A DNA stretch of 47,331 nucleotides from a virus (IMGVR_UViG_2778261458_000002); one strand, 5' to 3'; numbered from the stretch's first letter, positions 11,683 to 31,709 are shown. Translations and numbers: made by a program. The notes: a model not told the origin generated them from the letters alone.

Positions 11683-11801
11683 CTCATAGAATTATATAAT
11701 TATAGATTTATATAAAAAGTGCTTTACAGGTGGGAAAAAATTTCCTAAGGTTATGCCCGAAACCGAGCGATACCCGCCCTGGTTAAACCGGAGATAACCC
11801 G
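11683..11801 (+). promoter_or_regulatory. conserved promoter + 5' leader module, copy A
   Basis: AT-rich palindromic box, TTTACA-N16-TAAGGT, then conserved leader CCCGAAACCGAGCGATACCCGCCCTGGTTAAACCGGAGA ending at ATG 11802; near-identical copies at 21925 and 27617. Confidence 0.5.
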
Positions 11802-12182
11802 ATGAGCATGATTAAAATCCGTAAAAACGCTTTCCTTAAAATTCAAACTATCCTGGCTGGTTCTGTTGGCGTGATTTGCCGTTCTTCTTCAAGCCGCATT
11901 GATGACGGCTACGATGATGAGTATCGTGTGTCCTCGTGCGATGAGGCTTTAACCTGGCTGAAGGAGAATCAGGAACGTGCCCAGGTATATCTGGAAACAG
12001 AGAACGGCAACCAGATGCTGCGTATTAGCGGTCGTTATGGATTTGAAACTACATTCATTGCCTATTTTAATCAGGCTTACTTTGACAAGGAGCTGGCCTG
12101 GTACACTGATCGCATGAGCAAAAGCGAGCCAGCCCCGATTACACCGCCGAACAATAAACCATTTTTATTCCTCGTTAAGTAA
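11802..12182 (+). CDS. hypothetical protein
   Basis: 126-aa ORF beginning exactly at the end of conserved module A. Confidence 0.5.
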   Translation: MSMIKIRKNAFLKIQTILAGSVGVICRSSSSRIDDGYDDEYRVSSCDEALTWLKENQERAQVYLETENGNQMLRISGRYGFETTFIAYFNQAYFDKELAWYTDRMSKSEPAPITPPNNKPFLFLVK

Positions 12183-12192
12183 ACACGATGTG

Positions 12193-12219
12193 CGCAAAGT
12201 GTCATTTTGACACTTTGCG
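12193..12219. promoter_or_regulatory. operator palindrome
   Basis: Perfect 12-bp arms CGCAAAGTGTCA-TTT-TGACACTTTGCG immediately upstream of the HTH gene. Confidence 0.45.
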
Positions 12220-12247
12220 AGTGTTAATATTGTGCGCGGAGGATGCT

Positions 12248-12499
12248 ATGACTGGTTATGAATTGAAATTATGGCGTCGAGGGATGAACTGGACGCAGGA
12301 GCGAGCCGCCGAAGAATTTGGGATATCGTTGGCTACATATAAGCGATATGAGAAGGGGGAGCCGCCGAGGGTCATGGAGATGGCCATTCGCGTTCTGTCG
12401 TTTGACGATATGGTTAAAGATCTTTCACACCTTGATAAAGATGCGATTCTGTTAAGGCTGCAAACCCTTGTATGGGAAAAGGTTAAAGTGTCGTCATAA
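12248..12499 (+). CDS. XRE-family HTH transcriptional regulator
   Basis: 84 aa from ATG 12248 (GGAGG 6 nt upstream); WTQERAAEEFGISLATYKRYE helix-turn-helix; the longer ORF from 12188 would read through its own operator. Confidence 0.55.
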   Translation: MTGYELKLWRRGMNWTQERAAEEFGISLATYKRYEKGEPPRVMEMAIRVLSFDDMVKDLSHLDKDAILLRLQTLVWEKVKVSS

Positions 12500-12571
12500 T
12501 TGGAACAAGGGATCAAATGATCCTTTACGGATCGTTTTATGGTGGTGTAATGTAAGCGCCAGAAAGACAAA

Positions 12572-12594
12572 AACCGCCTTGCCGGGCGGTTTTC
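12572..12594. terminator. bidirectional terminator-like hairpin
   Basis: AACCGCC / GGCGGTT stem flanked by A-run upstream and T-run downstream. Confidence 0.45.
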
Positions 12595-13155
12595 AGTCTG
12601 AAATTTAAATCTTGCTTGGTAGGCTGGATTTAAAAAGACACCTCTTGATTGGGGCGGCTTTCTTGCGTCTAAAGATAATCAAATCTTTTTGCGCCTGCAA
12701 CCCCTTTTTTACTGGTGCCCATTTCAGACTCACGCTCGCGTCGTTGTCTTTGCCACTTCGTTGGGTTCGGTGTTTTTGGGCGAAGTGGCGCGCGGGTATG
12801 CGTACAAGGGGAAAGTGTGCTGACGCAAGCCAGGAACAGCGATCTAAACTAAGTCGAGTCTGAGAAAGGCAGGAGTGCGACAACTCGCCTGTGCTCTATG
12901 AGCAGAAGAAGGTATATCAGACGACCAATGGCATGATTGTGGGCCACAGGGCGCACACGGCGGCGAAGCATTGGAAACGATGTGGAGCTATCTGGTGGCA
13001 TGAGTTCCGGTACTCGATCTCGAGCTTTTTTTGATGCTTTTGAGAAGGGGCCGGAACTCCGGTAAAGGGCACCCTGTATGGGGGGAGGGGGGGTTGTGTC
13101 TAAAGGAAGATCTAATACGATATTGCTTTACCCTTATATCTAAAAGGAGATTTCT

Positions 13156-13791
13156 ATGGGGATGCTGGTGGCGTTTATTATTAGCCTGATTTTGTGTTTC
13201 TTCGTAGTTCGTGGCGCATATCGGAAACAATGTGCCTCGTCTTCTGGTAGTAGGTTCAAAGCTGTTTTAGTGAGTGGCTTTCTCGGGATTGCTACTTTTG
13301 TAGTTGTTAATACTCTTGCGGCTGTGACCTTGATCCCAGAAGACTCCAGCACTACGGCTACCACCGGAGCTGCTTTTGATGGTGTGACCGTAGATAAGTT
13401 TAAGCAGTTATATAATGATGACCTTGAAGGCATCGCTACATCAGGAAAAGCCACCTCCACTATAAGAATTAAGTCTGTTAAACAAGGTAACAACACCGTT
13501 GAATTTGCCATCAACTCATCTGTTAACGGTCGGGCTAGAGTTGATAAGGATGGAAAGATTTCTGAGTTATTATGGCGAGTATCCAAGCCTAACTCTGATT
13601 CCTTGCTTTCTATGGCCGTAGCAGTTGAAGTCTTGGATGCGTCAAGTGAAAGAGACACCGTGATTGCGCAGTTAGAGCAGATTGTTAAATCTGATATGCA
13701 GAAAGCTGAGTTCAAGACTAAGAGAGGCGAGTATTACGTTTCTCGTGACAAATCAGGGCATGTATCGCTACTGATTACACCGAAATATTAA
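13156..13791 (+). CDS. membrane-anchored or secreted protein, unknown function
   Basis: 211-aa ORF with N-terminal hydrophobic helix (LVAFIISLILCFFVV), AAGGAG RBS, own terminator; isolated between non-coding stretches. Confidence 0.5.
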   Translation: MGMLVAFIISLILCFFVVRGAYRKQCASSSGSRFKAVLVSGFLGIATFVVVNTLAAVTLIPEDSSTTATTGAAFDGVTVDKFKQLYNDDLEGIATSGKATSTIRIKSVKQGNNTVEFAINSSVNGRARVDKDGKISELLWRVSKPNSDSLLSMAVAVEVLDASSERDTVIAQLEQIVKSDMQKAEFKTKRGEYYVSRDKSGHVSLLITPKY

Positions 13792-13802
13792 GAATTGAAG
13801 AA

Positions 13803-13826
13803 GCGCCCAAATCGGGCGCTTTGTTT
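13803..13826. terminator. intrinsic terminator shared by convergent genes
   Basis: GCGCCC-AAATC-GGGCGC hairpin followed by TTTGTTTT. Confidence 0.6.
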
Positions 13827-14995
13827 TATGGTTTTGCACCTGCGGCCAGTTTATCCGCAGATATTTTTATCAGTTCCTGTAGTGTCCTGGCTGGCAGGTT
13901 TGCATCCAGTACGCTGAGTATGCTGTTGTGATCAGCTTGGTCGACTACTTTGCCTGTCGGTGGTAGTAGTTTGAGCTGAGGGTTCAGATTTTCGTCAAAG
14001 CTGATAAGTGCTCTGGCGTTTCTGAGCAGATCAAGAAGTAAGGCTGATATCACATTTTCCTGAGTCATTGCTGGCAGATTTAGCGCCGCTTTGGTTTTCC
14101 CTGTTGCCTTGTCAAACTCCTTTATTAGTTCCTTCCTGTAGTTCGGTTCCGTTAATAGCCGATTATGCTCTGTTGCCGCGCGGATAATCGTTTTTTCCTG
14201 GTACAGTCGTTTAGCCAGATCACGCTCGTACTGTGTTTTTAACACGCTGCTGATAGCGTTAAAGGCTTCAATGTAGGCCAGCTTGATATCTTTCACGCCT
14301 GGACCGTCGATACTCTCCATGAGCAAGGTAAATCCGTCTTTTGTCATGCGATAGATTGTTATTTCGCGGTCGCTTCCTTCCAGCGGTCGTTGTTCTTTAA
14401 AGAAGTGACGCGCCGCAGCCGTGCGAGGAATGCGTAACGCATCGATGGCCATAACGATGGAATTGTTTGTGGTGCTGAATGCCTGAGCAACATCGGCTGA
14501 GGTTGTGAGTGGCTCGTTGTTGCACACCTTAATGTAAAATATCGGTTTGGCGTTGAGCGTATCGACAACCTCACGAGCATTGCTTGGCGAGACGGTAACG
14601 GTCGCGGCCGTTTGTGCGTTCTGGTTGAAATAGCAGTCTTCCAGCCGTTCGAACACATCCCACGCTTGGTTAGTTTCAAGCATTTTGGCGTGACGTGCAG
14701 CCCCGCGTTCTGTCCAGAGGATGAGGGAGCGAACTTTCGGGGGAATTTGTAACCCTCTTAAAGATGGTTCGTTAACTACTCTCACAGGAACTCTTAAAGA
14801 GTTTTTGTTCTTCAACTCTCGTAACTCTTTACCTTCTATCCTAAAAAAGTGTTTACCTTCTATAAAACGTTCCTTGTTTCTATTGAAATTGTTTGTCAGA
14901 CGTTGGCGCTCGGTTCCATACAATTGCGCCAGTAGTTCAGTAGTGATAACGGGGATCTGGTTATGCAGGATAGGCTGTAGGGTGTTAACGGTCAT
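13826..14995 (-). CDS. phage antirepressor-like protein (ORF6N/KilAC-type domains)
   Basis: 389-aa ORF; N-terminal ITTELLAQLYGTERQRLTNNFNRNKERF resembles antirepressor N-domains; translationally coupled to a small upstream ORF. Confidence 0.55.
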   Translation of the reverse strand: MTVNTLQPILHNQIPVITTELLAQLYGTERQRLTNNFNRNKERFIEGKHFFRIEGKELRELKNKNSLRVPVRVVNEPSLRGLQIPPKVRSLILWTERGAARHAKMLETNQAWDVFERLEDCYFNQNAQTAATVTVSPSNAREVVDTLNAKPIFYIKVCNNEPLTTSADVAQAFSTTNNSIVMAIDALRIPRTAAARHFFKEQRPLEGSDREITIYRMTKDGFTLLMESIDGPGVKDIKLAYIEAFNAISSVLKTQYERDLAKRLYQEKTIIRAATEHNRLLTEPNYRKELIKEFDKATGKTKAALNLPAMTQENVISALLLDLLRNARALISFDENLNPQLKLLPPTGKVVDQADHNSILSVLDANLPARTLQELIKISADKLAAGAKP

Positions 14996-15183
14996 TTTGC
15001 ACCTCCCATCACTACTTTGGTTACGAGGGAGATTTTTGCGTCAGAAACAGTGTTATCGTTGCTGGCGATGCGCATAGCTTCGCGCTCGATGATTTCAGCC
15101 AGGCGGAATTTATCGGCGTATGAGGCTTTCTTGAGAAGGATCTTTACGAGGTTGACGTAATAGTCATGGGGTAAGTTTGTCAT
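14992..15183 (-). CDS. small protein in the position of P1 icd, upstream of ant
   Basis: 63-aa ORF whose stop overlaps the ant start (ATGA); assignment by position only. Confidence 0.35.
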   Translation of the reverse strand: MTNLPHDYYVNLVKILLKKASYADKFRLAEIIEREAMRIASNDNTVSDAKISLVTKVVMGGAK

Positions 15184-15189
15184 GGTGAT

Positions 15190-15540
15190 AGTTCCCTTAA
15201 AGGTTAAGGATACTCACCACCGTCTGGTTCCAATCATTGGGTGGTGAGACGTACAGGGTTGGAACTACCGGTCACCATGGAATCCGGCGAGTCTTACGAC
15301 TCCCCCGCACGCCCCACCATAATTTGGGTGTAGCAGTGCTTTACGCATAAAAAACCGCTAACGCGGTATGCGCCATGATGATTATCGGGGTTCCAATCCC
15401 GACCGTAGATTTTGCTACGGCTCGGAAAGTGTCCACCAATGGCGCATTCATGTCAATACGGCGAGATTTTAACAGAGACAACCACATAGCGTGGGTTTGA
15501 AAAACGGAATTTTCTGTTCATTAAGCGCATGATTTGACCA
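15190..15540 (-). ncRNA. structured leader / candidate c4-like antisense RNA of the ant operon
   Basis: 350-nt untranslated region with repeated GGTTCCAAYC segments (15227, 15386) and a complementary TTGGAAC segment (15259), plus a CTCACCACC...GGTGGTGAG stem; boundaries unknown. Confidence 0.3.
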
Positions 15541-15576
15541 ATCAAATTTGTTTGATACTGGATTGTTGAGAACATT

Positions 15577-15687
15577 GTGTGAATGTAGGGAACTTATATG
15601 TGAGTATAAGGAACTTTGTGTGATTTATTTGCGAAAAAGTTTGCTTCATATCCAGTTTTTTGGGTATGCTGTGAATGTAGGGAACTA
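15577..15687. promoter_or_regulatory. three 17-bp direct repeats (operator candidates) in divergent intergenic region
   Basis: GTGAATGTAGGGAACT at 15581-15596 and 15671-15686, variant GTGAGTATAAGGAACT at 15600-15615. Confidence 0.4.
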
Positions 15688-15756
15688 GATGGTATTGATT
15701 GTGGTTTCTTTTGAGATTGGAAATTGGTAGTGAATTTAATGCAGAGGAGGTAAAAA

Positions 15757-16296
15757 ATGACTGAAACATCAAAAAATTCATGTTTTTCAACAATTCACCT
15801 AATGATCATAAAAGAACTTAGGCTGGAAAGAGGTGTGCATCAAGGAGTACTGGCTCAAGCTGCCGGAAAAACACCAAACGCATGGACAAAGATAGAGAAC
15901 GGGCAGTCTGTATTAACAGTTGATGCCCTTTTTGGTGCTTGCACAGCCCTTAATATTAGCCCAATGAATTTCATGTTGTTGGTAGAAAAACTGATTCCCG
16001 AATTTAATCGCCATGGTTACTACTTTTTCCCTGGAACAATCAGTCAGGACGAGGATAACCTTTTACCTCTGATGCTGCGTTACTTTAATAGCAAGGGGTT
16101 TGAAGCATTGAGAAATAGGCCATTCGAAAGAATTAGCATAAGCTCAATGGGATTTTCATTTGGGGGCGGCATCCCTGTTACTCCAACTGCTGTAATGTAT
16201 TGTTGCGATGAAGCATACAGAGATTGGGTCGATAACGGTGCTGATACGGATAATCGAGATTATCAGAAGCCATTAACAGGTCTTGGACTGTTTTAA
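15757..16296 (+). CDS. HTH (XRE-like) regulator, candidate repressor of the ant region
   Basis: 179-aa ORF, GAGGAGG RBS; N-terminal LAQAAGKTPNAWTKIENGQSVLTVDALF helix-turn-helix; divergent from ant operon. Confidence 0.5.
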   Translation: MTETSKNSCFSTIHLMIIKELRLERGVHQGVLAQAAGKTPNAWTKIENGQSVLTVDALFGACTALNISPMNFMLLVEKLIPEFNRHGYYFFPGTISQDEDNLLPLMLRYFNSKGFEALRNRPFERISISSMGFSFGGGIPVTPTAVMYCCDEAYRDWVDNGADTDNRDYQKPLTGLGLF

Positions 16297-16733
16297 TGAG
16301 TGAAGAAACAAAAAAACCGCCCTATTGAGGACGGTTCTTTCGTGCTGATCGGATTCGCGGTCCTTTCAGCATTACGTTGTTGTATAAACAACCACGCAAG
16401 CACAAGCAGCAAGTTGATTTTACCCAAAAGGTAATAATAGTCCACTATTATGCTTCAAAAAATTGTGGTTCTTGTTGTGTCTGCAAACTCACAGATTGTG
16501 GGTAGGTTACTGATTTTGTGAAAATAAACTGGTTTTTTCGTTTAATTTATTTCCTATTACTAATCTTAAAATAATCGTAAAATACCTGTGGACCTTCCCG
16601 CCGATTCGCACCCGGGCACCGACTTTAGGGGAGGATTCTCCGTTGCCGTACATGCAAGCACAAGCAGCCGTGCTTGCTCTCGCGTTGTTTTCGTCGGTGG
16701 GGATGCCGTGAAACGGCCTGTAAGGGCCATACA

Positions 16734-16856
16734 ATGAAAAAATACTGTATGTGTATTTTTATCGTTGTTACTGGGGCTTTGTTTACGCCACATGGGGAGG
16801 GTTGGAAGATTACTGATAACGCTCTGAATGTGACGATAAACATTAGCAGCAAGTAG
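16734..16856 (+). CDS. small hydrophobic peptide (40 aa), speculative
   Basis: MKKYCMCIFIVVTGALFTPHG... preceded by a long hairpin-rich leader and followed by a strong terminator; no Hok signature. Confidence 0.25.
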   Translation: MKKYCMCIFIVVTGALFTPHGEGWKITDNALNVTINISSK

Positions 16857-16862
16857 CGATTA

Positions 16863-16884
16863 GGCCCCTTCGGGGGCCTTTTTT
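16863..16884 (+). terminator. intrinsic terminator
   Basis: GGCCCC-TTCG-GGGGCC hairpin followed by TTTTTT. Confidence 0.7.
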
Positions 16885-16894
16885 ATGGTTGAAT

Positions 16895-17077
16895 TTAAAC
16901 GCTGGAGCGCATTAAGCCTTTCAGAACTGCTTCACGTACCCATTCTGGCTTGGTGGATAGCAGGGCAAATAAGCGACCAGCTTGCAGCCGTTTGAGGTCG
17001 GTTAGACGAGTTTTCAGTAACCGTGTATATTGTTGCTCGGACATAACAAATTCCCCTTGTTGTGTCGCGACGGCCAA
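16895..17077 (-). CDS. small hypothetical protein downstream of par genes
   Basis: 60-aa ORF co-oriented with parA/parG; weak support. Confidence 0.25.
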   Translation of the reverse strand: MAVATQQGEFVMSEQQYTRLLKTRLTDLKRLQAGRLFALLSTKPEWVREAVLKGLMRSSV

Positions 17078-17106
17078 CAGTTGGCGCTGGAGGCCGTCAC
17101 CTTCTC

Positions 17107-17355
17107 TTACTTCTGGTTGTATTGAGCCTTGAGTAACTCAAAAGATTTTGTCAGCACTTCTTTCAATGACATATCCATTGAGCTGGCGAACGTTTTGTAC
17201 TCGCGTTTAAATTCAGGGTCGACGTTAAACGCCATTTGTGCCCCACCTGATTTGGTTCTGGTTGGCGTTTCAGTCGGGTCGAAAACCTGCGGTTGTTCGA
17301 TCGATGGCGGTACGCCTTTGCTGTTCTTCTTTGGTGGTTTTGATGGTCCGGCCAT
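17107..17355 (-). CDS. ParG-like ribbon-helix-helix partition/centromere-binding protein
   Basis: 82-aa ORF directly downstream of ParA gene; basic Pro-rich N-tail and C-terminal RHH-like segment (MAFNVDPEFKREYKTFA). Confidence 0.55.
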   Translation of the reverse strand: MAGPSKPPKKNSKGVPPSIEQPQVFDPTETPTRTKSGGAQMAFNVDPEFKREYKTFASSMDMSLKEVLTKSFELLKAQYNQK

Positions 17356-17398
17356 GTGTATCCCCTCTTATATAAATCTATAAAACTATAATTATATA

Positions 17399-18067
17399 TT
17401 ACGCGGCAGTAGTCAGAGCCTCAAGCTGGTTGATAATCCCCTGAATAACGTCGTCTGCCTTTTTGCGTGGCGCAACGTATGAGCACTCAATGAGGCTTAA
17501 GCCCTTATCCTGAGCTTTGCTCAGAGCTGGCTTGTGGGGAATGTACTTATCGACAACAAAGTATGGCGTATTAGCCAGGTACTCTTGGGCTTCGATGTAG
17601 TCAGCTTCGTTTTCAGCCGCGCCGGAAAACACCATGCAAATTTTCTTGATTGGTACACCCTTTTTAACGATGCCGTGAGCCGTGTTAACGGTGGTTTCCA
17701 GGTCATCGGTAGAGAATCTGGTTGGCAAAATAACCATATCCAGAAATTCAGAGAGCTTCGGTACTGATTCAGATGCGTAGGCACCGCCATCGACGATAAC
17801 CAGGTCGTATACTTCTGATTCGATGATTTTCTGGACTTGTGATGGTGTGCCGCACGGCTGCGCCGCGATTGCTGGTTCGATATTGTTGGCCATTCTGCGT
17901 TGTACCCAACGCGTTACCGTTCCGTTAAGCACATCCATATCGATCAGGCATACATTCCAGCCAGCCTTTGCATAAGCAACTGCTAAAGCACGGGCAATTG
18001 TTGATTTGGTTACGCCGCCTTTTCCGTTGAAAATACCTACAGAGATAGTCATTTGTCGAGACTCCAT
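17399..18067 (-). CDS. parA: ParA-family partition ATPase (small type Ib, ParF-like)
   Basis: 222-aa ORF with deviant Walker A GKGGVTKST near N-terminus and Walker B-like LVIVDGG. Confidence 0.8.
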   Translation of the reverse strand: MESRQMTISVGIFNGKGGVTKSTIARALAVAYAKAGWNVCLIDMDVLNGTVTRWVQRRMANNIEPAIAAQPCGTPSQVQKIIESEVYDLVIVDGGAYASESVPKLSEFLDMVILPTRFSTDDLETTVNTAHGIVKKGVPIKKICMVFSGAAENEADYIEAQEYLANTPYFVVDKYIPHKPALSKAQDKGLSLIECSYVAPRKKADDVIQGIINQLEALTTAA

Positions 18068-18075
18068 GTGTTTGG

Positions 18076-18170
18076 TTATATAATTCTATAAATCTATATT
18101 TATAGAACGAGGTAAGCATAACCAACTTTTTGGCGGATGAAAAGCGTTTTATATAATTATATAAATCTAT
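18076..18170. repeat. two 23-bp direct repeats upstream of parA (centromere/operator candidate)
   Basis: TTATATAATTCTATAAATCTATA (18076-18098) and TTATATAATTATATAAATCTATA (18148-18170); a related box lies between parA and parG (17368-17400). Confidence 0.45.
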
Positions 18171-18202
18171 AATCATATAAGCGGGCGTTAGCCCGCTTGC
18201 AG

Positions 18203-18577
18203 TCAGAGGTCAGCTATCGTTGATATCAGTTGATTTGCTAGCTGTCGCTGTTTACGTGAGAGGGTTAGAGCAGCTTCTGAGCGGTCGCTAAGAGGGGTGT
18301 TTTCATCAAGAATCATGAGGCATACAGAAATAATAGCCCTGTTATATGCCATCAATGGCTGGCACAGCTTCGATACCGCTGGCACATCGTATTGTAAGGC
18401 CGTTTTGAGGCAGACTTTTTGTTCTGATGCCAGATGAAGGATAGATTCTATCCAGTCGATATCTTTCTCATTATCAATGATTTGGCATAACATACACTCA
18501 ATCGCTATGTTCAACGCTTGGATTTCGATTCCAGCAGTGATCAGAGTTTCGTTTTTATTGGCTGTATGTAATTCCAT
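18203..18577 (-). CDS. hypothetical protein
   Basis: 124-aa ORF downstream of repressor gene; operator-like CCACAAAGTGTGG 37 bp upstream of its start. Confidence 0.4.
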   Translation of the reverse strand: MELHTANKNETLITAGIEIQALNIAIECMLCQIIDNEKDIDWIESILHLASEQKVCLKTALQYDVPAVSKLCQPLMAYNRAIISVCLMILDENTPLSDRSEAALTLSRKQRQLANQLISTIADL

Positions 18578-18613
18578 GCGTAGCCTCTTTTATACTTTCA
18601 CATGTTGTCAAAA

Positions 18614-18626
18614 CCACAAAGTGTGG
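18614..18626. promoter_or_regulatory. operator-like palindrome CCACAAAGTGTGG
   Basis: Same CCAC-N5-GTGG architecture as the boxes at 19447-19501. Confidence 0.35.
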
Positions 18627-18669
18627 TTTTTTTGAGCGTAGAAATGCACGGCTTTCGCCGTGCTGTGTA

Positions 18670-19326: not shown

Positions 19327-19364
19327 GTCTCATCAATCGTGAATGGTGGGTTATTTATACATTA

Positions 19365-19501
19365 CCACATTTAGTGGTTTTCACATGGTAAGACGAGAGG
19401 TGGACCACAAATAGAAGGTTATTTTTTGTTTCGCCCATTGAAAAGCTCACGATATGTGGTTTTAATACCACATATCGTGGTTTTAATACCACATATCGTG
19501 G
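19365..19501. promoter_or_regulatory. operator array between divergent repressor and early genes
   Basis: CCACATATCGTGG at 19468-19480 and 19489-19501, inverted variant at 19447-19459 (21-bp spacing), variant CCACATTTAGTGG at 19365-19377. Confidence 0.55.
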
Positions 19502-19521
19502 TTTTAATTGGAGTTCGTTAA

Positions 19522-20528: not shown

Positions 20529-20758
20529 GTAGTTATGTTCGCGGTGCTGCGATGCATTGCCAGAATCCCCAATTCTGGCGCTTTCTGACCAGTAAAACAG
20601 GGAAGAACGTTTCAAACAGTTCTGAGGCCTCTGTGATTCTGCGTGAGTTTTGCGGGATCTCATCCCGTAAAGAGCTGGCAAAGAACTACGCGGCCAGAAG
20701 CATGTATGTCCAGTTAATCAACGAGTTCAACCTCTTTATCAATGGTAAGGGGCGCTGA
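20525..20758 (+). CDS. hypothetical protein
   Basis: 77-aa ORF, coupled to neighbours. Confidence 0.3.
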   Translation: MSSYVRGAAMHCQNPQFWRFLTSKTGKNVSNSSEASVILREFCGISSRKELAKNYAARSMYVQLINEFNLFINGKGR

Positions 20759-21162
20759 TGAACGGACGTACACCAACGAAGAAAGAGAAACTTTATATAC
20801 AAGCGGTGCTCACTCATGTGGGTTGCATAGCTTGCATTATTGATGGCCGTGAAATTGAGAATCCAGAGCTGTGGACGGAGCTACATCACGATCCTGATTA
20901 CGGCAGCGTTGATGAGAATTGCCACTTCCATAGCTTTGGGTTGTGCGCACCACATCATCGCGGTGTTGTGCCTGGTGGTGGGCGCGTGCCTCCGCATATT
21001 GCCGTTCGTCACCCTCCCCTGAGTAATTGTGCTCGCTTTGTTGAGCGTTATGGCACCGATGAATTTTTGTGTGCGCAGACGTGGGAGCTGTTGCCGCAGT
21101 CAGTTAAAGACGAAATTGGGTTTGATCTTAGTCTTGGTGAAGTACCAGGGGATACCAAATGA
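20758..21162 (+). CDS. Cys/His-rich protein, possibly HNH/Ref-like nuclease
   Basis: 134-aa ORF with GCIACIIDGR ... ELHHDPDYG ... CHFHSFGLCAPHH metal-binding pattern. Confidence 0.3.
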   Translation: MNGRTPTKKEKLYIQAVLTHVGCIACIIDGREIENPELWTELHHDPDYGSVDENCHFHSFGLCAPHHRGVVPGGGRVPPHIAVRHPPLSNCARFVERYGTDEFLCAQTWELLPQSVKDEIGFDLSLGEVPGDTK

Positions 21163-21491
21163 GATATACCGGCTTTCGCAAACCAGCGACAAGGAAAAGC
21201 AAATACGGCAATAAAAAAACGGTTGTCGATGATATCGCTTTTGATAGCAAAAAAGAGGCTGATTACTACTGCGAACTGAAGCTACTGAGAAAAGCTGGCC
21301 GCGTTGTGACGTTTCTTATGCAGGTGCCTTTTCATCTGCCTGGTGGTGTCGTTTATAAACTTGATTTCATGGTGTTTTATGACGATGGGACGATTGATTG
21401 TGTCGACACTAAAGGTGTGCGAACAGACGTCTACATCATGAAGAAAAAGCAGGTAGAGGCACTTTATCCCGTCACGATACGGGAGATCTGA
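21159..21491 (+). CDS. phage protein, DUF1064-like
   Basis: 110-aa ORF with SKYGNKKTVVDDIAFDSKKEADYYCELKLLRKAG, a pattern I associate with DUF1064 phage proteins. Confidence 0.45.
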   Translation: MRYTGFRKPATRKSKYGNKKTVVDDIAFDSKKEADYYCELKLLRKAGRVVTFLMQVPFHLPGGVVYKLDFMVFYDDGTIDCVDTKGVRTDVYIMKKKQVEALYPVTIREI

Positions 21492-21494
21492 ACA

Positions 21495-21872
21495 GTGAGA
21501 CGCGATCTGGATAGCTTGTTTGAGCTATGGGCGCTGTGGGTGCGCAATGGCTGCAACGCCCGTAGCGGTTTCGCGTCGATGTTAGAAATGATGATGGTTA
21601 CGCGCTGCCAGTTTACCGGAGGGGGCGGCGCACCAAATGACTCACTGGAAACCAGTATAGAGGGAGCGGTGACGGCCCTCACGGTAGTTGATGAGACTGC
21701 GGCGCTGGTTATCCGAATTGAATACGGGGCGTGGGAGATTCGGGGCCTCGACATAAATGCACCGCATATTGATAAAGCCCACGCCCTTTCTCTTAGTCTC
21801 AGACAGTATCGCCGGAAGCTGGCAAAAGCCAGGGCGTATGTTGTCGACTATTTGAAAAAGCGAAGAGAGTAA
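21495..21872 (+). CDS. candidate late-gene antiterminator (Q-like)
   Basis: 125-aa ORF (GTG start) ending ~50 bp before conserved promoter module B and upstream of the lysis cassette; weak resemblance to small Q proteins. Confidence 0.3.
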   Translation: MRRDLDSLFELWALWVRNGCNARSGFASMLEMMMVTRCQFTGGGGAPNDSLETSIEGAVTALTVVDETAALVIRIEYGAWEIRGLDINAPHIDKAHALSLSLRQYRRKLAKARAYVVDYLKKRRE

Positions 21873-21924
21873 AAGTGTCATTTTGAGCTGTTTTGATGGT
21901 GTGTAGACATCGGGAATATCGAAA

Positions 21925-22041
21925 ATCTATAAATATATAATTATAGATTTATATAAAAAGTGCTTTACAGGTGGGAAAAAATTTCCTAAGGTTATACCCG
22001 AAACCGAGCGATACCCGCCCTGGTTAAACCGGAGAAATCTG
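21925..22041 (+). promoter_or_regulatory. conserved promoter + 5' leader module, copy B
   Basis: Near-identical to 11683-11801 and 27617-27730; ends at ATG 22042. Confidence 0.5.
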
Positions 22042-23109
22042 ATGAATAAACAAGTAATTATTTCTGACTGGATCAACAACCCTAACAGCCTGTTAAGCAC
22101 TGATACTGGCTACCTATTACGCCATGTTAATGGTCGTATGGTCAAAAGCGATGAGCACGAAACCTTTTTCTTTGTTGAAGACGATGGGCGCATCTATGAG
22201 GATGGTTACTCTTATGAAGCCCAAACTGGTTGTATCCCTGCGGAGCTGGTGGACGTAACAGAAGATCTGCGCAAAGCATGGCTTGAACAGCAGCAGCGCG
22301 GAGATGATTACGTAAACACCTATCAGGAACGCCAGAACGCGCGTCTTGCCCGATATATTGCTCGTGCAGAAAAAGCCAGAAAAGAAGGTGCGGTAGCGCA
22401 TAAGCGAGCGCATGACCTGTTGGATGTGATCCCGTTAGGCCAGCCGATTTTAGTTGACCATTATAGCGCGAAAGGCCATCGCCGCCGTTTGTCTAAAGCT
22501 GATGCGTTATTCAGAAAAGCGTTTGTTGAATGCGAAAGTAAAGCATCACACTACGAGAGCAAAGCCGCAGGTGTTGGTCGTAATGGAATTTCGTCTGATG
22601 ATCCTGATGCGCTATTTAAGTTGCTTCGTAAGCTGCAAGGCTGCATGAAGTCACACGTCAAAATGAAGGCCGCAAATAAGGCCATTCGCAAATACAAAAA
22701 AGACCAATTACAGCAGCTTTCTGCATTAATCGATCTCAGGTTTACAGAAAGCGAAGCCAAAGAGTTACTGGCCGGAGATTTTTGTGGGCGCATCGGATTC
22801 CCTTCATACGCACTGAGCAACAATAACGCCGAGATCAAACGACTACAGAGCCGTATTAAGGAGCTTGAATCGGTCAAGTCTGTAACAGGAGCACAGCGCG
22901 AAGAATACGACGACTTTTCTATGGAGATAGATCCAGAGGATAACCGCATCCTGTTTTATTTCCCTGGCAAACCAGAGGCAAACATTCGTTCGCTGCTTAA
23001 ATCACGCGCCTTTAAGTGGAGTCCAACCCGTAATGCATGGGTTCGCAAGATTACTCCAAACGCCCTGGCTGATGCCCGATATCTAAAAGAATCGCTATTG
23101 AAAGCCTGA
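22042..23109 (+). CDS. hypothetical protein (DUF3560-like)
   Basis: 355-aa ORF starting at end of module B; HYSAKGHRRRLSKADALF and FKWSPTRNAWVRK segments. Confidence 0.45.
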   Translation: MNKQVIISDWINNPNSLLSTDTGYLLRHVNGRMVKSDEHETFFFVEDDGRIYEDGYSYEAQTGCIPAELVDVTEDLRKAWLEQQQRGDDYVNTYQERQNARLARYIARAEKARKEGAVAHKRAHDLLDVIPLGQPILVDHYSAKGHRRRLSKADALFRKAFVECESKASHYESKAAGVGRNGISSDDPDALFKLLRKLQGCMKSHVKMKAANKAIRKYKKDQLQQLSALIDLRFTESEAKELLAGDFCGRIGFPSYALSNNNAEIKRLQSRIKELESVKSVTGAQREEYDDFSMEIDPEDNRILFYFPGKPEANIRSLLKSRAFKWSPTRNAWVRKITPNALADARYLKESLLKA

Positions 23110-23120
23110 CAGTAAGCCTA

Positions 23121-23140
23121 CGGCGGGACGTCTCCCGCCG
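23121..23140 (+). terminator. terminator-like hairpin
   Basis: CGGCGGGA-CGTC-TCCCGCCG hairpin after the 355-aa gene; followed by AT-rich box rather than a clean T-run. Confidence 0.35.
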
Positions 23141-23186
23141 TATATAGAATTATATATTTATATAAATGTATAAGGACGCCTCGACA

Positions 23187-23468
23187 ATGAAACGCAAAAT
23201 TATTAACCCCCAAGATGTGATTAATTTCCTGACCGATCACCCATGTTCAAAAGTGGACGTAATCGCGGAGCACATTGGTGTGTCGCAGAACTCTATGCGT
23301 TGCAGACTGAGAAGCATGGTTGCCGAAGGACAGATAACAACCAGGAAAATAAATGGTTGCCTGTACTACTCCGCTAAACCGGAATTGCCATTTGGCATGA
23401 ATCCTAACTCCATGTTGTTTAACACCTTATTAGCCAAAGTTAAGCCGTTGAGAGAGGCTGTGGCATGA
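23187..23468 (+). CDS. winged-helix DNA-binding protein (FaeA-like)
   Basis: 93 aa from ATG 23187 (AAGGA RBS); VDVIAEHIGVSQNSMRCRLRSMVAEGQI helix-turn-helix. Confidence 0.45.
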   Translation: MKRKIINPQDVINFLTDHPCSKVDVIAEHIGVSQNSMRCRLRSMVAEGQITTRKINGCLYYSAKPELPFGMNPNSMLFNTLLAKVKPLREAVA

Positions 23469-23830
23469 GCATCAAAACACATACCGGAATAATCATTACC
23501 AATGATGGTGAGAAAAAAGTGAAGTTGCGCGAGACGCCGACAACCTGGTGTGTTGGTCCGAAAGAAACATATCGCAAGGAAGATGGCCGTCGTTGTGGGG
23601 CACCACTTTCCCGCCGTCGCCTCCTTTTGAGCACGATAAAACCTATCGGGCAGGTTGAGCAACCAACGACTCCGGTAACGAAGATTTCAGACAAGAGTCT
23701 GGCAAACCTGATCGCCGATGCGGACAAGGTGCTGGAGCGGAACACCCCAGTAGCCGATGAGGAATGGTGGCAGGATTTCCGAGCCGCAATGCTAGAGCTT
23801 CAGGAACGTCGTCGGGAGGAGTTGAAGTGA
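23465..23830 (+). CDS. hypothetical protein
   Basis: 121-aa ORF, ATGA-coupled. Confidence 0.4.
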   Translation: MSIKTHTGIIITNDGEKKVKLRETPTTWCVGPKETYRKEDGRRCGAPLSRRRLLLSTIKPIGQVEQPTTPVTKISDKSLANLIADADKVLERNTPVADEEWWQDFRAAMLELQERRREELK

Positions 23831-24018
23831 GCAAGAAAAATGCCGGATGGGTCAGGCCAATGAAGGCGAATAAACATCATTATTTTAATGAAGGTGAAGT
23901 AACCAGCATTTGCGGCCGTTGGATGTATTTTGGTGATTACCGTGAGCCAGACACTTTTGAGAGTCCTGATGATTGCGTGTCTTGTCGCCGGAAATTGAAC
24001 AAGGTGGCTTCTAAATGA
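23827..24018 (+). CDS. small Cys-rich protein (zinc-ribbon-like)
   Basis: ICGRW...DDCVSCRR pattern; start uncertain (GTG 23827 or ATG 23860). Confidence 0.3.
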   Translation: MSKKNAGWVRPMKANKHHYFNEGEVTSICGRWMYFGDYREPDTFESPDDCVSCRRKLNKVASK

Positions 24019-24404
24019 AAGAACGTGGTGTTGTTTTTAATGACGATATGGTTAGGTCCATCCTCGAAGGAAGGAAGACGCAGACTCGCCGACCTGTAAA
24101 AAATGTCAGGGCCGATAACTGCCTGGTTATCCGTAAACCGACAAAGAAACGCAATGGTGTCTATACCCACGTTATGGATGCACCTGAACATGGTTTATGC
24201 CCGTTCGGTAACGTTGGTGATCGCATATGGGTCCGTGAGGCGTGGGCGATATTAGGCAATGAGGATGGTTGCAGTGTGGACTGGAACGACAACCTTTGTC
24301 GTGGCGATGAGAAGAACGCAGCAAGGATTTATCGGGCCAGTTGTGAGCAAAAGCCTGGTGATTACGGTTTGTGGTCGATATCCCAGCCAGTGGTTGAGAG
24401 TTAG
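24015..24404 (+). CDS. ASCH-like domain protein
   Basis: 129-aa ORF; N-terminal FNDDMVRSILEGRKTQTRRP resembles ASCH/PUA-like proteins. Confidence 0.4.
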   Translation: MKERGVVFNDDMVRSILEGRKTQTRRPVKNVRADNCLVIRKPTKKRNGVYTHVMDAPEHGLCPFGNVGDRIWVREAWAILGNEDGCSVDWNDNLCRGDEKNAARIYRASCEQKPGDYGLWSISQPVVES

Positions 24405-24848
24405 CAATCGCCGTGTGGTGTTGTTCTCATTTTCTGGAATTGCCAGAGAGGGAGTAAAAGAGAAGCGCAGCGCGGCGCAAAACCGCTGGAAAAACCACTT
24501 ATATAAGCTGTAGTGAGAAACCATGCGCTTACGAGCAGTATTCAGATATTCAGAGCGGGTAATGAAGCACATACAACCGAAAACATGGCAGAAACTGGAC
24601 TCTATGGGAGTTAAGTTGGAGAAGATTACTCAACTTAAGCAGTGGCATATCGGCGAATATTATGGAAGTCCTGGTCGGGATGTTCGGTTGGTAAAAAGTT
24701 GAATATTGCTTTTTTATTGATCGATTAACCACAATATGAAGTTTTTTTTATGGGAAAACCTTGTTTTAGGTGGTAACTGGGTGTAGTGTTTCATTTAACG
24801 TAGTAAAACTGCGTTAAGCGATTACCGCGTAATTTGTTGCTTTATGAA

Positions 24849-24879
24849 GCCCTGCCTTTTTCGGCGGGGCTTTTTTTTT
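24849..24879 (+). terminator. intrinsic terminator upstream of lysis cassette
   Basis: GCCCTGCC / GGCGGGGC stem (one G-U pair) followed by nine T. Confidence 0.65.
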
Positions 24880-24892
24880 AACGAGGATTTCA

Positions 24893-25288
24893 ATGTCAGC
24901 AGAACCAATTTCCGGTACGGCCGTTGCTGCTGGTGGCCTGATGGGTGCCAGCGTTTTTGGTATTGCAACTGGTATTGATTACGGCGTTGTATTCGGGGCA
25001 TTTGCTGGCGCTGTTTTCTATGTTGCTACAGCGGTGAATATTAGCCGTCTCAAGCTGATTGGCTATTTCTTTACATCGTTCATTGTTGGAGTGATTGGAG
25101 CGCCGTTAGTTGGCTCATTTCTTGCCAAATGGACCAGCTACAACGATCGTCCTCTTGATGCACTTGGTGCGGTTATTGTGGCTGCATTGACAATTAAAAT
25201 CCTCACGTTCGTAAACAGCCAGGATCTCGGTAGCATCTTTGGAATGCTTTCCCGCTTACGTGGAGGGGGGGCAAATGGTAAGCAGTGA
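24893..25288 (+). CDS. membrane protein, putative holin
   Basis: 131-aa ORF with several hydrophobic helices, first gene of lysis cluster. Confidence 0.45.
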   Translation: MSAEPISGTAVAAGGLMGASVFGIATGIDYGVVFGAFAGAVFYVATAVNISRLKLIGYFFTSFIVGVIGAPLVGSFLAKWTSYNDRPLDALGAVIVAALTIKILTFVNSQDLGSIFGMLSRLRGGGANGKQ

Positions 25289-25571
25289 CCCGTCAGCACT
25301 GATTAATGCGGTGCTTTGCACAGTAATAGTAATGGCGCTGATGCTTTATCGACGGAAAGACTCCAGGCATCGTCCATTTGTTTCCTTTCTGGCTTATATC
25401 TACGTCATTGTATACGCCAATGTTCCCTTCCGTTATGTGTTCGGTCTTTATCAAGAATCCCACTGGTTGGTGGTTATTGGAAATCTGATTATCTGCATCG
25501 TTGTTCTGTATTTCAGGGGCAATCTGGCGAGGATAGTTGACTCATTAGGGTTTAATCATGACCAAAGATGA
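25275..25571 (+). CDS. small membrane protein (holin/antiholin candidate)
   Basis: 98 aa from ATG 25275 (G-rich RBS); three predicted TM helices. Confidence 0.4.
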   Translation: MVSSDPSALINAVLCTVIVMALMLYRRKDSRHRPFVSFLAYIYVIVYANVPFRYVFGLYQESHWLVVIGNLIICIVVLYFRGNLARIVDSLGFNHDQR

Positions 25572-26100
25572 GATTTTTAACAGCGTTCTTGGAAAAGAGG
25601 GTGGCTATGTGGAGCACCCTGACGACAAGGGAGGCCCAACAAAGTGGGGCATTACTCAGAACACTGCCCGTGCTCATGGATACCGTGGCGATATGCGCGA
25701 TTTAACCCGCGAACAGGCACTGGAAATCCTTGAGGCTGATTACTGGTACGGACCACGCTTTGATCAGGTGGCCGCATTATCCTCTGATATTGCCGCAGAG
25801 CTGTGTGACACGGGGGTGAACATGGGGCCAACAGTGGCGTCAAAAATGCTTCAACGCTGGCTGAATGTGTTCAACCTGCGCGGGAAGCTGTATCCCGATT
25901 TGGATGCAGACGGACGAATCGGTCCACGTACCATTAATGCGCTACGTGCTTATCTTGGGAATCGGGGAAAAGATGGCGAACGGGTGATGCTGACGTCGCT
26001 GAACTGTACGCAGGGCGAACGCTATCTGGAGCTGGCGGAGAAGCGCGAGGCTAATGAGTCGTTTGTCTACGGCTGGATGAAAGAGCGAGTGGTGGTATGA
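25558..26100 (+). CDS. endolysin, GH108-like lysozyme with peptidoglycan-binding domain
   Basis: 180-aa ORF; N-terminal VLGKEGGYVEHPDDKGGPTKWGIT (EGGY motif) and C-terminal PG-binding-like region. Confidence 0.7.
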   Translation: MTKDEIFNSVLGKEGGYVEHPDDKGGPTKWGITQNTARAHGYRGDMRDLTREQALEILEADYWYGPRFDQVAALSSDIAAELCDTGVNMGPTVASKMLQRWLNVFNLRGKLYPDLDADGRIGPRTINALRAYLGNRGKDGERVMLTSLNCTQGERYLELAEKREANESFVYGWMKERVVV

Positions 26101-26375
26101 CTGGTTTGAAAGCCGTTTTGTCATTTATCGGCACCGTTATATTGGTTGCATTCGGTGCGTTTGGTTTTGGTCGAATGAAGGGGCGAGAAAAGGCCGAAGA
26201 TGAAGCTGAAAAGCAGCGCATTAATGAGAATGCAGCCGCCGTAAAAGCCACTGCGGAGCGGCGTATAGAAGTGACAAAAGAGGTGGGGAATGTACAGCAG
26301 AGTGTTAACCATATGGCTGATGACGATGTTGATCGCGAGCTGCGGGAGTCGTGGAAGCGTCCCGGTGGTGGTTGA
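26097..26375 (+). CDS. i-spanin (Rz-like)
   Basis: 92-aa ORF, N-terminal TM helix then charged coiled-coil; overlaps endolysin stop. Confidence 0.55.
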   Translation: MTGLKAVLSFIGTVILVAFGAFGFGRMKGREKAEDEAEKQRINENAAAVKATAERRIEVTKEVGNVQQSVNHMADDDVDRELRESWKRPGGG

Positions 26376-26499
26376 TACCGCCTGTGATTGGGTAAAGCCC
26401 ATCTACCTGACTGATCACGATATCGATGTTATGGACCGCCAGACAAAGAAAGATATTCTGGCTCATAACAGGGCATGGGAAATCAACTGCCCAAAGTAA
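26290..26499 (+). CDS. o-spanin (Rz1-like lipoprotein) overlapping Rz in another frame
   Basis: 69-aa ORF with lipobox-like LIASC starting inside the Rz gene. Confidence 0.45.
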   Translation: MYSRVLTIWLMTMLIASCGSRGSVPVVVDTACDWVKPIYLTDHDIDVMDRQTKKDILAHNRAWEINCPK

Positions 26500-26668
26500 T
26501 ATATATTTCTATAATTATATAAATATATAGTTACAACATTCTATGCGCTTTTCTCATGAGCGCACGCATCAACCATGTTTGTCTGATATGCCGCCGCGCC
26601 CAAAAATCCTGAATTTATTGGCTGGGATTTTCGTGCGCGGCGCCACACCAGACAAACAAATCAAATAT

Positions 26669-26744
26669 GGCCCCTTAGCTCAGTGGTTAGAGCAGGCGAC
26701 TCATAATCGCACGGTCATCGGTTCAAATCCGGTAGGGGCCACCA
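26669..26744 (+). tRNA. tRNA with CAU anticodon, ileX-like (tRNA-Ile2 lysidine type) or tRNA-Met
   Basis: 76 nt, GGCCCCTTAGCTCAGTGGTTAGAGCAGGCGACTCATAATCGC... with acceptor stem GGCCCCT/AGGGGCC and 3' CCA; 5' half matches my recollection of E. coli ileX. Confidence 0.85.
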
Positions 26745-27030
26745 ATTCACTCTCACACATAAAGATAAGCGCGGTGGAGTTACTTCTTCGTGCTCATCTT
26801 TATGCGTGCCTGGTGCGCATTTCGGAGGCAGGGCCTGTTATCCGCAAAGGGGTAAAAGCTGGAGCGGCACGGAACTGTAGCCGTGTGACCAAAACAGCGT
26901 TGTCGGGCGATATCCGGCACACAACAGGCAAGGGCATTAATCAGTCTGGTTAGTGCCCTTTTCGTTGTGTTTGCTGTAGAGCTGGCCAGCGTTATGACTG
27001 CCGGAGATAAGCGCCGGAGGCACAACTAAC

Positions 27031-27618
27031 ATGGAGGCAATTGCATTGTTTAATCTGATTTATGCAGATCCCCCCTGGGAATACAAAGACAAGTGTAAGG
27101 ATGGGAATCGTGGCGCTGGTTTTAAGTATCCAACGATGAAAGCTGAGGAGATTGCTCGTATTCCTGTCTGGCAGCTTGCTAATCCTGAATCGTGTTTGTT
27201 GGCCATGTGGTGGGTTCCGACTCAGCCAGAAGAAGCGTTGCTGGTGGTGAAAGCATGGGGATTCAGGCTTATGACCATGAAGGGCTTCACATGGAACAAA
27301 TGTGGTAGCCGACAGCCAGATAAGCTGGTGATGGGGATGGGGCATATGACTCGTGCGAACAGTGAAGATTGCTTGTTTGCGGTAAAAGGCAAACTGCCGA
27401 CCCGCCTTGATGCGGGAATCATTCAGTCGTTTACATCGCCTCGTCTGGAACATTCACGGAAGCCTGATGTGGTTCGTGACAAGCTGGTAAGACTGTTAGG
27501 TGATGTTCCTCGTATTGAGCTGTTTGCTCGCGGTGATTTACCTGATGGCTGGCATGGCTGGGGCAACCAGTGCAATGGAGGTATCCAATTGCATGATGCT
27601 CTCTGGCAAGTGGTATAG
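27031..27618 (+). CDS. DNA N6-adenine methyltransferase, MT-A70 family (orphan)
   Basis: 195-aa ORF with IYADPPWEY catalytic motif; no restriction endonuclease gene adjacent. Confidence 0.75.
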   Translation: MEAIALFNLIYADPPWEYKDKCKDGNRGAGFKYPTMKAEEIARIPVWQLANPESCLLAMWWVPTQPEEALLVVKAWGFRLMTMKGFTWNKCGSRQPDKLVMGMGHMTRANSEDCLFAVKGKLPTRLDAGIIQSFTSPRLEHSRKPDVVRDKLVRLLGDVPRIELFARGDLPDGWHGWGNQCNGGIQLHDALWQVV

Positions 27619-27730
27619 AATTATATAATTATAGATTTATATAAAAAGTACTTTACAGGTGAGAAAAAATTTCCTAAGGTTGTACCCGAAACCGAGCGAT
27701 ACCCGCCCTGGTTAAACCGGAGATAACCCG
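27617..27730 (+). promoter_or_regulatory. conserved promoter + 5' leader module, copy C
   Basis: Near-identical to copies A and B; ends at ATG 27731. Confidence 0.5.
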
Positions 27731-31693: not shown

Positions 31694-31709
31694 TGTGTAG
31701 GAGGCGCTG

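Follow-up and report, generated by a model that had tools for sequence, protein, structure and literature searches.

Dispersed four-box arrays as predicted binding sites of a ribbon-helix-helix partition protein in an Escherichia coli phage-plasmid

The phage-plasmid IMGVR_UViG_2778261458_000002 raises the question of why one family of AT-rich boxes is present both at a plasmid partition locus and next to several predicted promoters and gene starts far from it. The window, which denotes the whole stretch of 47,331 base pairs (bp) that was analysed, is essentially a complete, circularly permuted phage-plasmid of Escherichia coli with a G+C content of about 45%, and the boxes are located within the part from position 11,683 to 27,730. 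In the initial annotation, it was proposed that they are centromere or operator sites of a partition system, dispersed beside promoters, with a site for a shared activator or a nucleoid protein as an alternative. The results presented here support the first proposal. With a probability of roughly 0.7, the boxes form eight arrays which are cooperative binding sites of a ribbon-helix-helix (RHH) centromere-binding protein of 82 amino acids, encoded downstream of parA. This assignment is based on the predicted fold of the protein, on the association of homologous gene cassettes with similar arrays, and on the covariation of the boxes with the protein.

The eight arrays and their partition cassette

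Each site consists of exactly four tandem 8-bp units, with the consensus TATAGAWT or TATATAAW (Table 1). The eight loci listed in the initial annotation were all recovered, with their extents refined to 32 bp each, and the boxes are indeed common to the partition locus (arrays B, C1 and C2) and to a triplicated promoter module (arrays A, D and H). The description of the boxes as palindromic was not upheld, since the units are direct repeats in which only the TATA core is palindromic, and the arrays themselves are not palindromes. The five distal arrays (A, D, E, G and H) and the arrays at par are spread over 16 kb.

Among the 243 TATA tetramers in the window, chains of at least three at a period of 8 bp were identified nine times, which corresponds to the eight loci, with array E counted in two registers. 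No such chain was found outside the eight loci in the whole 47-kb window, and each of the other periods from 4 to 15 bp gave only zero or one chain. Local shuffling in blocks of 40 to 1000 bp resulted in a mean of 0.007 to 0.026 chains, with a maximum of one. For a vocabulary test, 68 hexamers were drawn from arrays B, C1 and C2 alone. The five distal arrays reached scores of 21 to 27 out of 27 with these par-proximal hexamers, as compared to 11 for the best other position in the 47 kb and a maximum of 17 in the shuffles; in 50 kb of E. coli K-12, including the horizontally acquired CP4-6 prophage, scores of up to 13 were obtained. A search for motif enrichment had been suggested as a check. 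The chains are confined to the eight loci in the window, and none was present in the same 50 kb of K-12 or in eight other elements of about 225 kb in total, these two sets serving as negative controls. The bare pattern of four TATA-N4 units, however, was found in more than 120 IMG/VR contigs, for which the median G+C content is 33%, mostly once per locus, and about 20 loci contained at least two separate chains. Because it is this unspecific in AT-rich contigs, the bare pattern is not diagnostic and is useless as an enrichment test. The exceptional point is the presence of eight arrays in one element of about 45% G+C.

At the par locus, on the minus strand, a terminator-like hairpin is followed by array C2, ACGC, the predicted promoter TTTTCA-17 nucleotides (nt)-TATGCT, 8 nt, array C1, GGAG and the ATG of parA; the parA stop codon is then followed by array B, GAGGGG and the ATG of the parG-like gene. 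The array-promoter-array layout recurs in related elements from Salmonella, Serratia and Vibrio, in a further phage-plasmid, L017, and in contig L153. For the ParA protein, Pfam matches to CbiA, ParA and MipZ were obtained, and the NCBIfam model ParA_partition was aligned over the full length with 78.6 bits, which is below the curated cut-off. The N-terminal helix-turn-helix (HTH) of type Ia ParA proteins was not found in the domain searches.

In the 82-residue protein, a basic and conserved tail at the N-terminus (MAxPSKPPKKxxKGxPP) leads through a disordered linker to a C-terminal RHH with the strand QMAFNVD. A word-indexed protein search recovered no relatives below 80% identity. In an exhaustive HMMER search, which covered 1.84 billion representatives, 93 clusters at 50% identity were obtained, nearly all with a length of 70 to 90 amino acids. 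In the family alignment, the variable linker is followed by the C-terminal pattern xLNFKVxxEFxxEFKxFAxxxDMSMxxLLxxxFExYK. An AlphaFold2 model based on a 46-sequence alignment showed an extended segment and two helices (residues 46-58 and 63-79) within residues 41-80, with a predicted local distance difference test score of 90-97, while residues 1-40, which carry the conserved basic motif, were of low confidence and disordered. When this model was compared to the PDB with Foldseek, almost all of the top 50 or so matches were RHH proteins, with a probability of up to 0.98 and a root-mean-square deviation of 1.1-2.4 Å over 42-45 residues. Among them were StnY, CdbA, CopG, ORF56, AmrZ, Arc and ParD antitoxins, and ParG (1P94) was found at rank 12. 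Weak Pfam matches to RHH_10 were obtained for 20 of the 46 relatives and to Antitox_RHH for 11. On the level of the structural model, the RHH fold and the ParG-like architecture of the protein are considered to be established. The Pfam family ParG (PF09274) was matched by one of the 46 relatives, with an E-value of 0.09. Because no significant match to a ParG profile was obtained, the protein is described as ParG-like in fold and role, and not as a demonstrated member of the ParG family. The PHROGs family matched by the protein is labelled 'unknown function', and in every other source checked it is listed as 'hypothetical' or of 'unknown function'. With a small ParA devoid of the HTH, a small RHH protein encoded directly downstream and repeat arrays at the operon, the cassette is best described as a type Ib-like partition system, as judged from sequence.

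The distal arrays A, D and H form the first 32 bp of a predicted sigma-70-type promoter-leader module of about 116 bp, the three copies of which are 97-100% identical. In PLSDB, 62 relatives each contain three copies of the module. Its order is array, AAGTGC, TTTACA, a spacer of 17 nt, TAAGGT, a leader of about 50 nt with GGAG, and ATG. Arrays A, D and H are located at -43 to -74 relative to the predicted module promoters, and C2, A, D and H all end 4-6 nt from the predicted -35 hexamer, and this placement has been retained in Salmonella, Serratia, L017 and L153. For the leader, neither a significant RNA structure (z = -1.6) nor an Rfam family was identified. In all three copies, the spacer between the -35 and -10 hexamers retains an inverted repeat, GGAAA-AAA-TTTCC, for which the Serratia version is AGGA-A6-GTCCT; it may represent a second operator for another regulator. 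At array E, the region of translation initiation that follows (23171-23189, AAGGACGCCTCGACAATG) resembles the one between C1 and parA (18069-18050, minus strand, GGAGTCTCGACAAATG). The same pairing was observed in Serratia, L017 and Salmonella, and this likeness suggests that units of array plus ribosome-binding site (RBS) have been duplicated.

Table 1. Positions of the arrays, the partition genes, the predicted promoters and the tRNA gene in the window
Feature	Position	Strand	Boxes or predicted elements	Context
Array A	11685-11716	+	CATAGAAT TATATAAT TATAGATT TATATAAA	after higBA terminator; -35 of module 1 begins 6 nt downstream
Module 1	11717-11801	+	predicted -35 TTTACA 11723-11728, -10 TAAGGT 11746-11751	heads 126-amino-acid phrog_8090 gene (ATG 11802)
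parG-like gene	17107-17355	-		82 amino acids; starts 43 nt after parA
Array B	17367-17398	-	TATATAAT TATAGTTT TATAGATT TATATAAG	fills gap between parA stop codon and parG-like RBS
parA	17399-18052	-		217-amino-acid Walker-type partition ATPase, type Ib-like
Array C1	18075-18106	-	TCTATAAA TATAGATT TATAGAAT TATATAAC	predicted parA leader, about +2 to +33, 5' of GGAG and ATG 18052
par promoter (predicted)	18115-18143	-	TTTTCA-17-TATGCT	bracketed by C2 and C1; read from sequence
Array C2	18148-18179	-	TATATGAT TATAGATT TATATAAT TATATAAA	about -41 to -72; stops 4 nt before par -35; terminator-like hairpin 5'
Array D	21926-21957	+	four boxes	5' of promoter module 2
Module 2	21958-22041	+	predicted -35 21964-21969, -10 21987-21992	heads DUF3560 gene (ATG 22042)
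Array E	23143-23174	+	TATAGAAT TATATATT TATATAAA TGTATAAG	between terminator-like hairpin 23121-23142 and RBS of winged-helix/MarR-like gene (ATG 23187)
Array G	26500-26531	+	TATATATT TCTATAAT TATATAAA TATATAGT	after lysis/spanin genes, about 135 nt 5' of tRNA-Met
tRNA-Met (CAT)	26669-26744	+		about 135 nt downstream of array G
Array H	27614-27645	+	four boxes	5' of promoter module 3
Module 3	27646-27730	+	predicted -35 27652-27657, -10 27675-27680	heads 89-amino-acid phrog_6143 gene (ATG 27731), at the head of the late, structural-gene side

Box switching in homologous cassettes

Homologous ParA/RHH cassettes were gathered from plasmid, phage, viral-contig and metagenome collections, and a search with a ParA alignment yielded four viral and two genomic loci of more distant relationship. 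Arrays were present in nearly all of the cassettes. Twelve other cassette loci, from about ten distinct elements, carry arrays with a period or spacing of 8 bp next to par; these are found 5' of parA, in the gap that separates parA from the RHH gene, or immediately 3' of the latter. Such array-bearing cassettes were identified in Serratia, L017, L025, Vibrio, L018/L022, Salinicola (L019), L024, L026, L027, L148, L149, L151 and L153. No protein apart from ParA and the RHH protein is encoded at every array-bearing locus. If the structural genes are set aside, the overlap between the window and the Vibrio element is limited to ParA, the RHH protein, DUF1064 and a protein of 97 amino acids, and contigs of 1.3 kb were found which hold parA, the arrays and the RHH gene and nothing else.

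The sequence of the box was then compared to the strand residues flanking the invariant Phe of the RHH protein. In the window and in the Salmonella element, the residues A/S,N are combined with the box TATA(G/T)AWW. Residues N,N are present in three elements, Serratia pJSRIV006_2, L017 and L025, in which the box is TTTAAATA or TCTTTAAA with a TTTAAA core. Three unrelated elements with residues N,K, namely the Vibrio phage PE002A (with L018/L022), plasmid L026 and contig L153, share the box CACGAAAG or TAACGAWW with an ACGAA core. Single cases are L024 (K,A; GTAC), Salinicola L019 (N,R; ATAAAGCN, ATAAAGC type), L148 (F,W; GCATG), L149 (N,Q; GTAGAA and AAAACC) and L151 (S,T; GGAAMCAR, about 40 units). 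The same strand residues in unrelated backbones are thus found with the same core, and different residues with different cores. In L151, a GC-poor plasmid contig which also codes for a giant ankyrin-repeat protein, the approximately 40 units are consecutive and located 5' of the parA/RHH pair (8920-9240); by its arrangement, this array would represent the conventional type of one large centromere, associated here with a member of the same protein family.

The arrays distant from par follow the same rule. In five related phage-plasmids (Salmonella, Serratia, L017, L025 and Vibrio), the distal box is the element's own par box, and where the elements are syntenic, the distal arrays are located at homologous places. 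The Salmonella element, with an RHH protein of 89% identity, has kept all eight arrays although their flanks have diverged. The Serratia element has the same maintenance and regulatory core with siphovirus-like tail genes, and its RHH protein is about 40% identical to that of the window. Here, two arrays of the TTTAAATA type bracket the par promoter, three are located 5' of the triplicated promoter-leader module, and one is located 5' of a conserved gene start, '...AGGACnCCTCGACAATG'. L017 and L025 show their own box at the homologous par promoter, module and E-type sites, like Serratia; E-type sites are present at 27684 in the Serratia element (L003) and at 3925 in L017. The Vibrio phage-plasmid (L005), which has a P2-like backbone, contains six distal GAAAG arrays and two at par, as compared to 0.017 expected. 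All six are in sense orientation and most of them adjoin an RBS or ATG; they occupy short gaps within late operons, where no promoter is obvious.

A comparison of the par words showed specificity both ways. With the words of the window, each of the eight arrays was recovered in the window as well as in Salmonella, and nothing was found in Serratia, L025, L017, Vibrio, Erwinia and L026. The Serratia and L025 words found the distal arrays of each other and nothing in the window. Because the box changes with the RHH protein and is the same at par and at the distal sites, the arrays were assigned to this protein. In three non-phage plasmid contexts (L026, L148 and L151), arrays were identified at par only, within 10 kb on either side. 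For this small sample, this indicates that array dispersal is a trait of phage-plasmids.

Known RHH operator systems and a model for the arrays

The ParF/ParG system of TP228 has a similar composition, with a small Walker ParA followed by a protein of about 76-82 amino acids, in which the N-terminal tail is flexible and basic and the RHH is located at the C-terminus. Arrays with an 8-bp period are located 5' of the operon, and the TP228 sites double as operator and centromere. The operator OF and the centromere parH of TP228 consist of 4-bp ACTC boxes with 4-bp AT-rich spacers, to which one RHH dimer is bound per box; the centromere is efficient with about eight boxes, and inversion of boxes is tolerated (PMC3130281). 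The 8-bp period of the window is therefore the known geometry of ParG sites, which fits with binding by an RHH protein. Differences to TP228 are the core, which is TATA(G/T)A instead of ACTC, the eight separate four-box arrays over 16 kb instead of 20 contiguous boxes in one place, the marginal sequence similarity, and the nature of the replicon as a phage-plasmid.

In the delta/omega system of pSM19035, an RHH-type ParB is also found on arrays of short non-palindromic repeats at several promoters of one replicon, which corresponds to the situation in the window, where the promoters are predicted ones. Six omega parS sites overlap the promoters of copS, delta and omega and serve as centromere and operator at once, and at least four contiguous repeats are needed for the activation of ParA (PMC9499535). 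Omega was described to activate at low occupancy and to repress at full occupancy (PMC4627068). However, the omega arrays are composed of 7 to 10 heptads of 7 bp (WATCACW), as compared to 8-bp units with a TATA(G/T)A core in the window; pSM19035 is a Gram-positive (Firmicutes) inc18 resistance plasmid, and its regulon comprises copy control and toxin-antitoxin genes, not phage genes. Omega was not among the sequence matches of the 82-residue protein, and its family is unrelated in sequence. The presence of exactly four boxes in each array of the window is left without explanation by RHH binding, and it also matches the pSM19035 minimum.

In the linear phage-plasmid N15, the centromere sites are dispersed along the genome. 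Four such sites, IR1-4, have been identified (PMC7205306), and the N15 partition system was reported to aid late gene expression (Ravin et al. 2008, as cited in PMC11652158). With its five distal arrays, the window likewise has several putative centromere-type sites scattered through a phage-plasmid; however, the N15 system is of type Ia with a large HTH-containing SopA, an HTH-type SopB and a single palindrome per site, and its proteins are unrelated to those of the window. KorB is a partition centromere-binding protein which acts as a global transcriptional regulator. In RK2, its OB sites are scattered over the replicon (PMC5016525). KorB differs in being an HTH protein of the ParB family which recognises 13-bp palindromes, on a conjugative plasmid. 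The RHH protein MetJ binds two to five tandem 8-bp met boxes with one dimer per box and cooperative contacts between the dimers; it is a chromosomal metabolic repressor with a corepressor, and has no ParA partner.

By analogy to TP228 ParG and pSM19035 omega, RHH dimers would coat each four-box array with one dimer per box. At par, C2 and C1 around the promoter and B in the gap between parA and the parG-like gene would form an autoregulatory operator and, at the same time, a centromere. Coating would repress the operon, and the partition complex would stimulate ParA through the basic N-terminal tail, following the type Ib logic of TP228. With the five distal arrays, the same protein would be loaded at eight places, so that several minimal ParA-activating partition sites are provided and the three identical module promoters and two more gene starts come under its control. 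In total, at least four promoters would be under one concentration-dependent regulator, like omega on pSM19035, and repression at high occupancy, with saturating protein, is favoured.

An extension of this model, which is speculative and rather doubtful at present, is that the partition RHH protein serves as a copy-number-sensing master switch in these phage-plasmids. In the plasmid state, the autoregulated protein would saturate the eight arrays, segregate the replicon and hold the three modules, one of which heads the late side, at a set level. During lytic replication, multiplication of the arrays would titrate the protein, so that the modules fire in the manner of a timer. The specificity would reside largely in two or three strand residues (A/S,N for TATA; N,N for TTTAAA; N,K for ACGAA), which would make it open to reprogramming.

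Alternative explanations and genetic context

Several observations weigh against the assignment of the arrays to the RHH protein and against their proposed function. The link of the protein to ParG is weak: TP228 ParG was the best sequence-profile match in the PDB, in the right strand-helix-helix register, with an E-value of 0.28 and an hhalign probability of 52%, and for the 82-residue protein itself no match was obtained with Pfam (E-value of at most 0.01), NCBIfam or phmmer against the PDB. Clear 8-bp arrays were not identified in Erwinia phage LS-2018a and L020, both of which are distant relatives. Each of the eight arrays has the orientation of the local transcription, for which binding alone gives no reason, and a polarity of the arrays, seen in the window and in Vibrio, is not expected when box inversion is tolerated as in TP228. 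Since TP228 needs about eight boxes, single four-box arrays may be weak centromeres. The module and par promoters were read manually and are predicted with the conserved geometry as support; they match 8 of 12 consensus positions, a scan for the sigma-70 consensus flagged neither of them, and no recognisable downstream promoter was found at arrays B, E and G. In addition, AT-rich arrays at -43 to -74 could act as UP elements.

It is unlikely, but would leave the binding itself untouched, that the RHH protein occupies all arrays while the distal ones are purely centromere or bridging sites, or purely operators. The four separate partition sites of N15 would be a precedent for pure centromeres, and both the position of the Vibrio distal arrays in gaps of late operons that lack obvious promoters and the restriction of arrays to par in non-phage plasmids are in agreement with a single role. 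However, the short and conserved distance of C2, A, D and H to the -35 hexamer argues against sites without any influence on transcription, and in pSM19035 the same arrays do both jobs.

A different element-encoded regulator might bind the arrays, with the par operon as one member of its regulon and the RHH protein bound elsewhere or at part of the sites; this was judged to be improbable. Candidates would be the 124-amino-acid protein encoded next to parA, the winged-helix protein encoded after array E, and the 97-amino-acid and DUF1064 proteins. The latter two are also shared by the window and the Vibrio element, and a small uncharacterised gene is located between cI and parA in the enterobacterial elements. 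However, arrays accompany ParA/RHH pairs where all of these candidates are absent, as on conjugative-type and other plasmids and on the 1.3-kb contigs, and the type of box follows the RHH strand residues in unrelated backbones. Tandem 8-bp boxes are a known architecture of RHH sites, and the CI-like repressor of the element probably has its own, distinct palindromic operators at 19447-19502.

Very improbable is the explanation that the distal arrays are AT-rich UP elements, curved DNA or targets of H-NS, Fis or IHF which were copied with the duplicated module; of these, a nucleoid-protein site had already been raised in the initial annotation. Arrays A, D and H are located where UP elements act, end in an A-tract and are part of the module of about 116 bp, and TATA-N4 arrays arise by chance in AT-rich viral DNA. 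Against this stand the Vibrio and Salinicola arrays, which are not composed of A and T only (GAAAGnnn and ATAAAGCN) and have the same architecture of four to five 8-bp units. The hosts E. coli/Salmonella and Serratia share their nucleoid proteins, yet the boxes at homologous sites switch between their elements, so that a host nucleoid protein offers no explanation for the switch. Furthermore, arrays B, E and G occur separately from the module, and neither the 8-bp register nor the length of four units varies among the eight arrays or in Salmonella, where the flanks have diverged. Three other candidates were rejected: RepA iterons, since the arrays travel with par in replicons with other replication proteins; CI operators, which are probably the distinct palindromes at 19447-19502; and -10 promoter elements, since other types of box have no likeness to TATAAT.

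The nearest relatives of the window are non-mobilizable plasmids of about 48 kb from E. coli, E. fergusonii, E. albertii, Klebsiella and Salmonella, and the isolated Yersinia myophages vB_YpM_39/41/44 are also among the closest ones. The family is common: its par locus was found in phages isolated on Yersinia pestis and in 71 of the 5,426 complete genomes of E. coli, among them that of the reference strain ATCC 25922, which carries the relative NZ_CP009073.1. The window codes for an IncFII-type RepA, a HigBA-like toxin-antitoxin pair, an ORF6N/Rha antirepressor-like protein and a CI-like HTH-S24 repressor, and further contains an early operon, lysis genes and a myovirus morphogenesis block. 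Directly 5' of array A, a RelE/HigB-like toxin gene and an HTH antitoxin gene (10992-11638, plus strand) are followed by a strong terminator. Close to array G, an open reading frame (ORF) at 26543-26953 is probably no real gene, since tRNA-Met falls inside it. Between the gene for the CI-like repressor and the early operon (19360-19502), three copies of CCACATATCGTGG, one of them inverted, are spaced by TTTTAATA, with weaker CCAC...GTGG sites upstream; these sites probably serve as operators for CI and bear no relation to the TATA arrays.

On the minus strand, a region with Rfam matches to C4 antisense RNA (84 bits) and isrK (65 bits) was identified at 15237-15421, directly 5' of a small ORF (15183-14992) and the 389-amino-acid ORF6N/Rha gene (14995-13826). 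By its organisation, this region looks like the immI-type c4-icd-ant antirepressor control of P1/P7, placed within a phage-plasmid. Between the Rha region and the parG-like gene, a full-length match (142 bits) to ryfA RNA, a chromosomal small-RNA/toxin locus of E. coli, is located at 16588-16884 (plus strand). Three proteins with a ParB/Srx N-terminal domain, which are unrelated to the ParA/RHH cassette, are encoded in the late region 5' of the terminase gene (29697-33576, plus strand).

In the searchable literature, neither this phage family nor a dispersal of type Ib sites on phage-plasmids was found to be described. The single ingredients have precedents, namely RHH proteins on 8-bp-spaced boxes in TP228, arrays with a dual role as centromere and operator in pSM19035, several centromeres on a phage-plasmid in N15, and scattered operators in the case of KorB. 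What appears to be new is an unannotated RHH family, box arrays with natural variants in specificity, and the use of four-box units at promoters and gene starts in several lineages of phage-plasmids.

If the arrays bind the partition protein at par and at five other gene starts, plasmid segregation would be linked to the control of phage genes in this element. A predicted function would be assigned to an unannotated family of about 93 clusters, together with its presumed DNA sites, and the correlation of strand residues to boxes suggests a simple relationship which is open to mutagenesis. The comparison indicates a spread of minimal centromere units onto the promoters and gene starts of phage-plasmids, in contrast to ordinary plasmids with the same cassette. 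The coupling of partition to phage development, which so far has been studied mainly in N15, becomes testable in a tractable E. coli system, and the arrays and the par locus offer targets for incompatibility and for curing of these elements.

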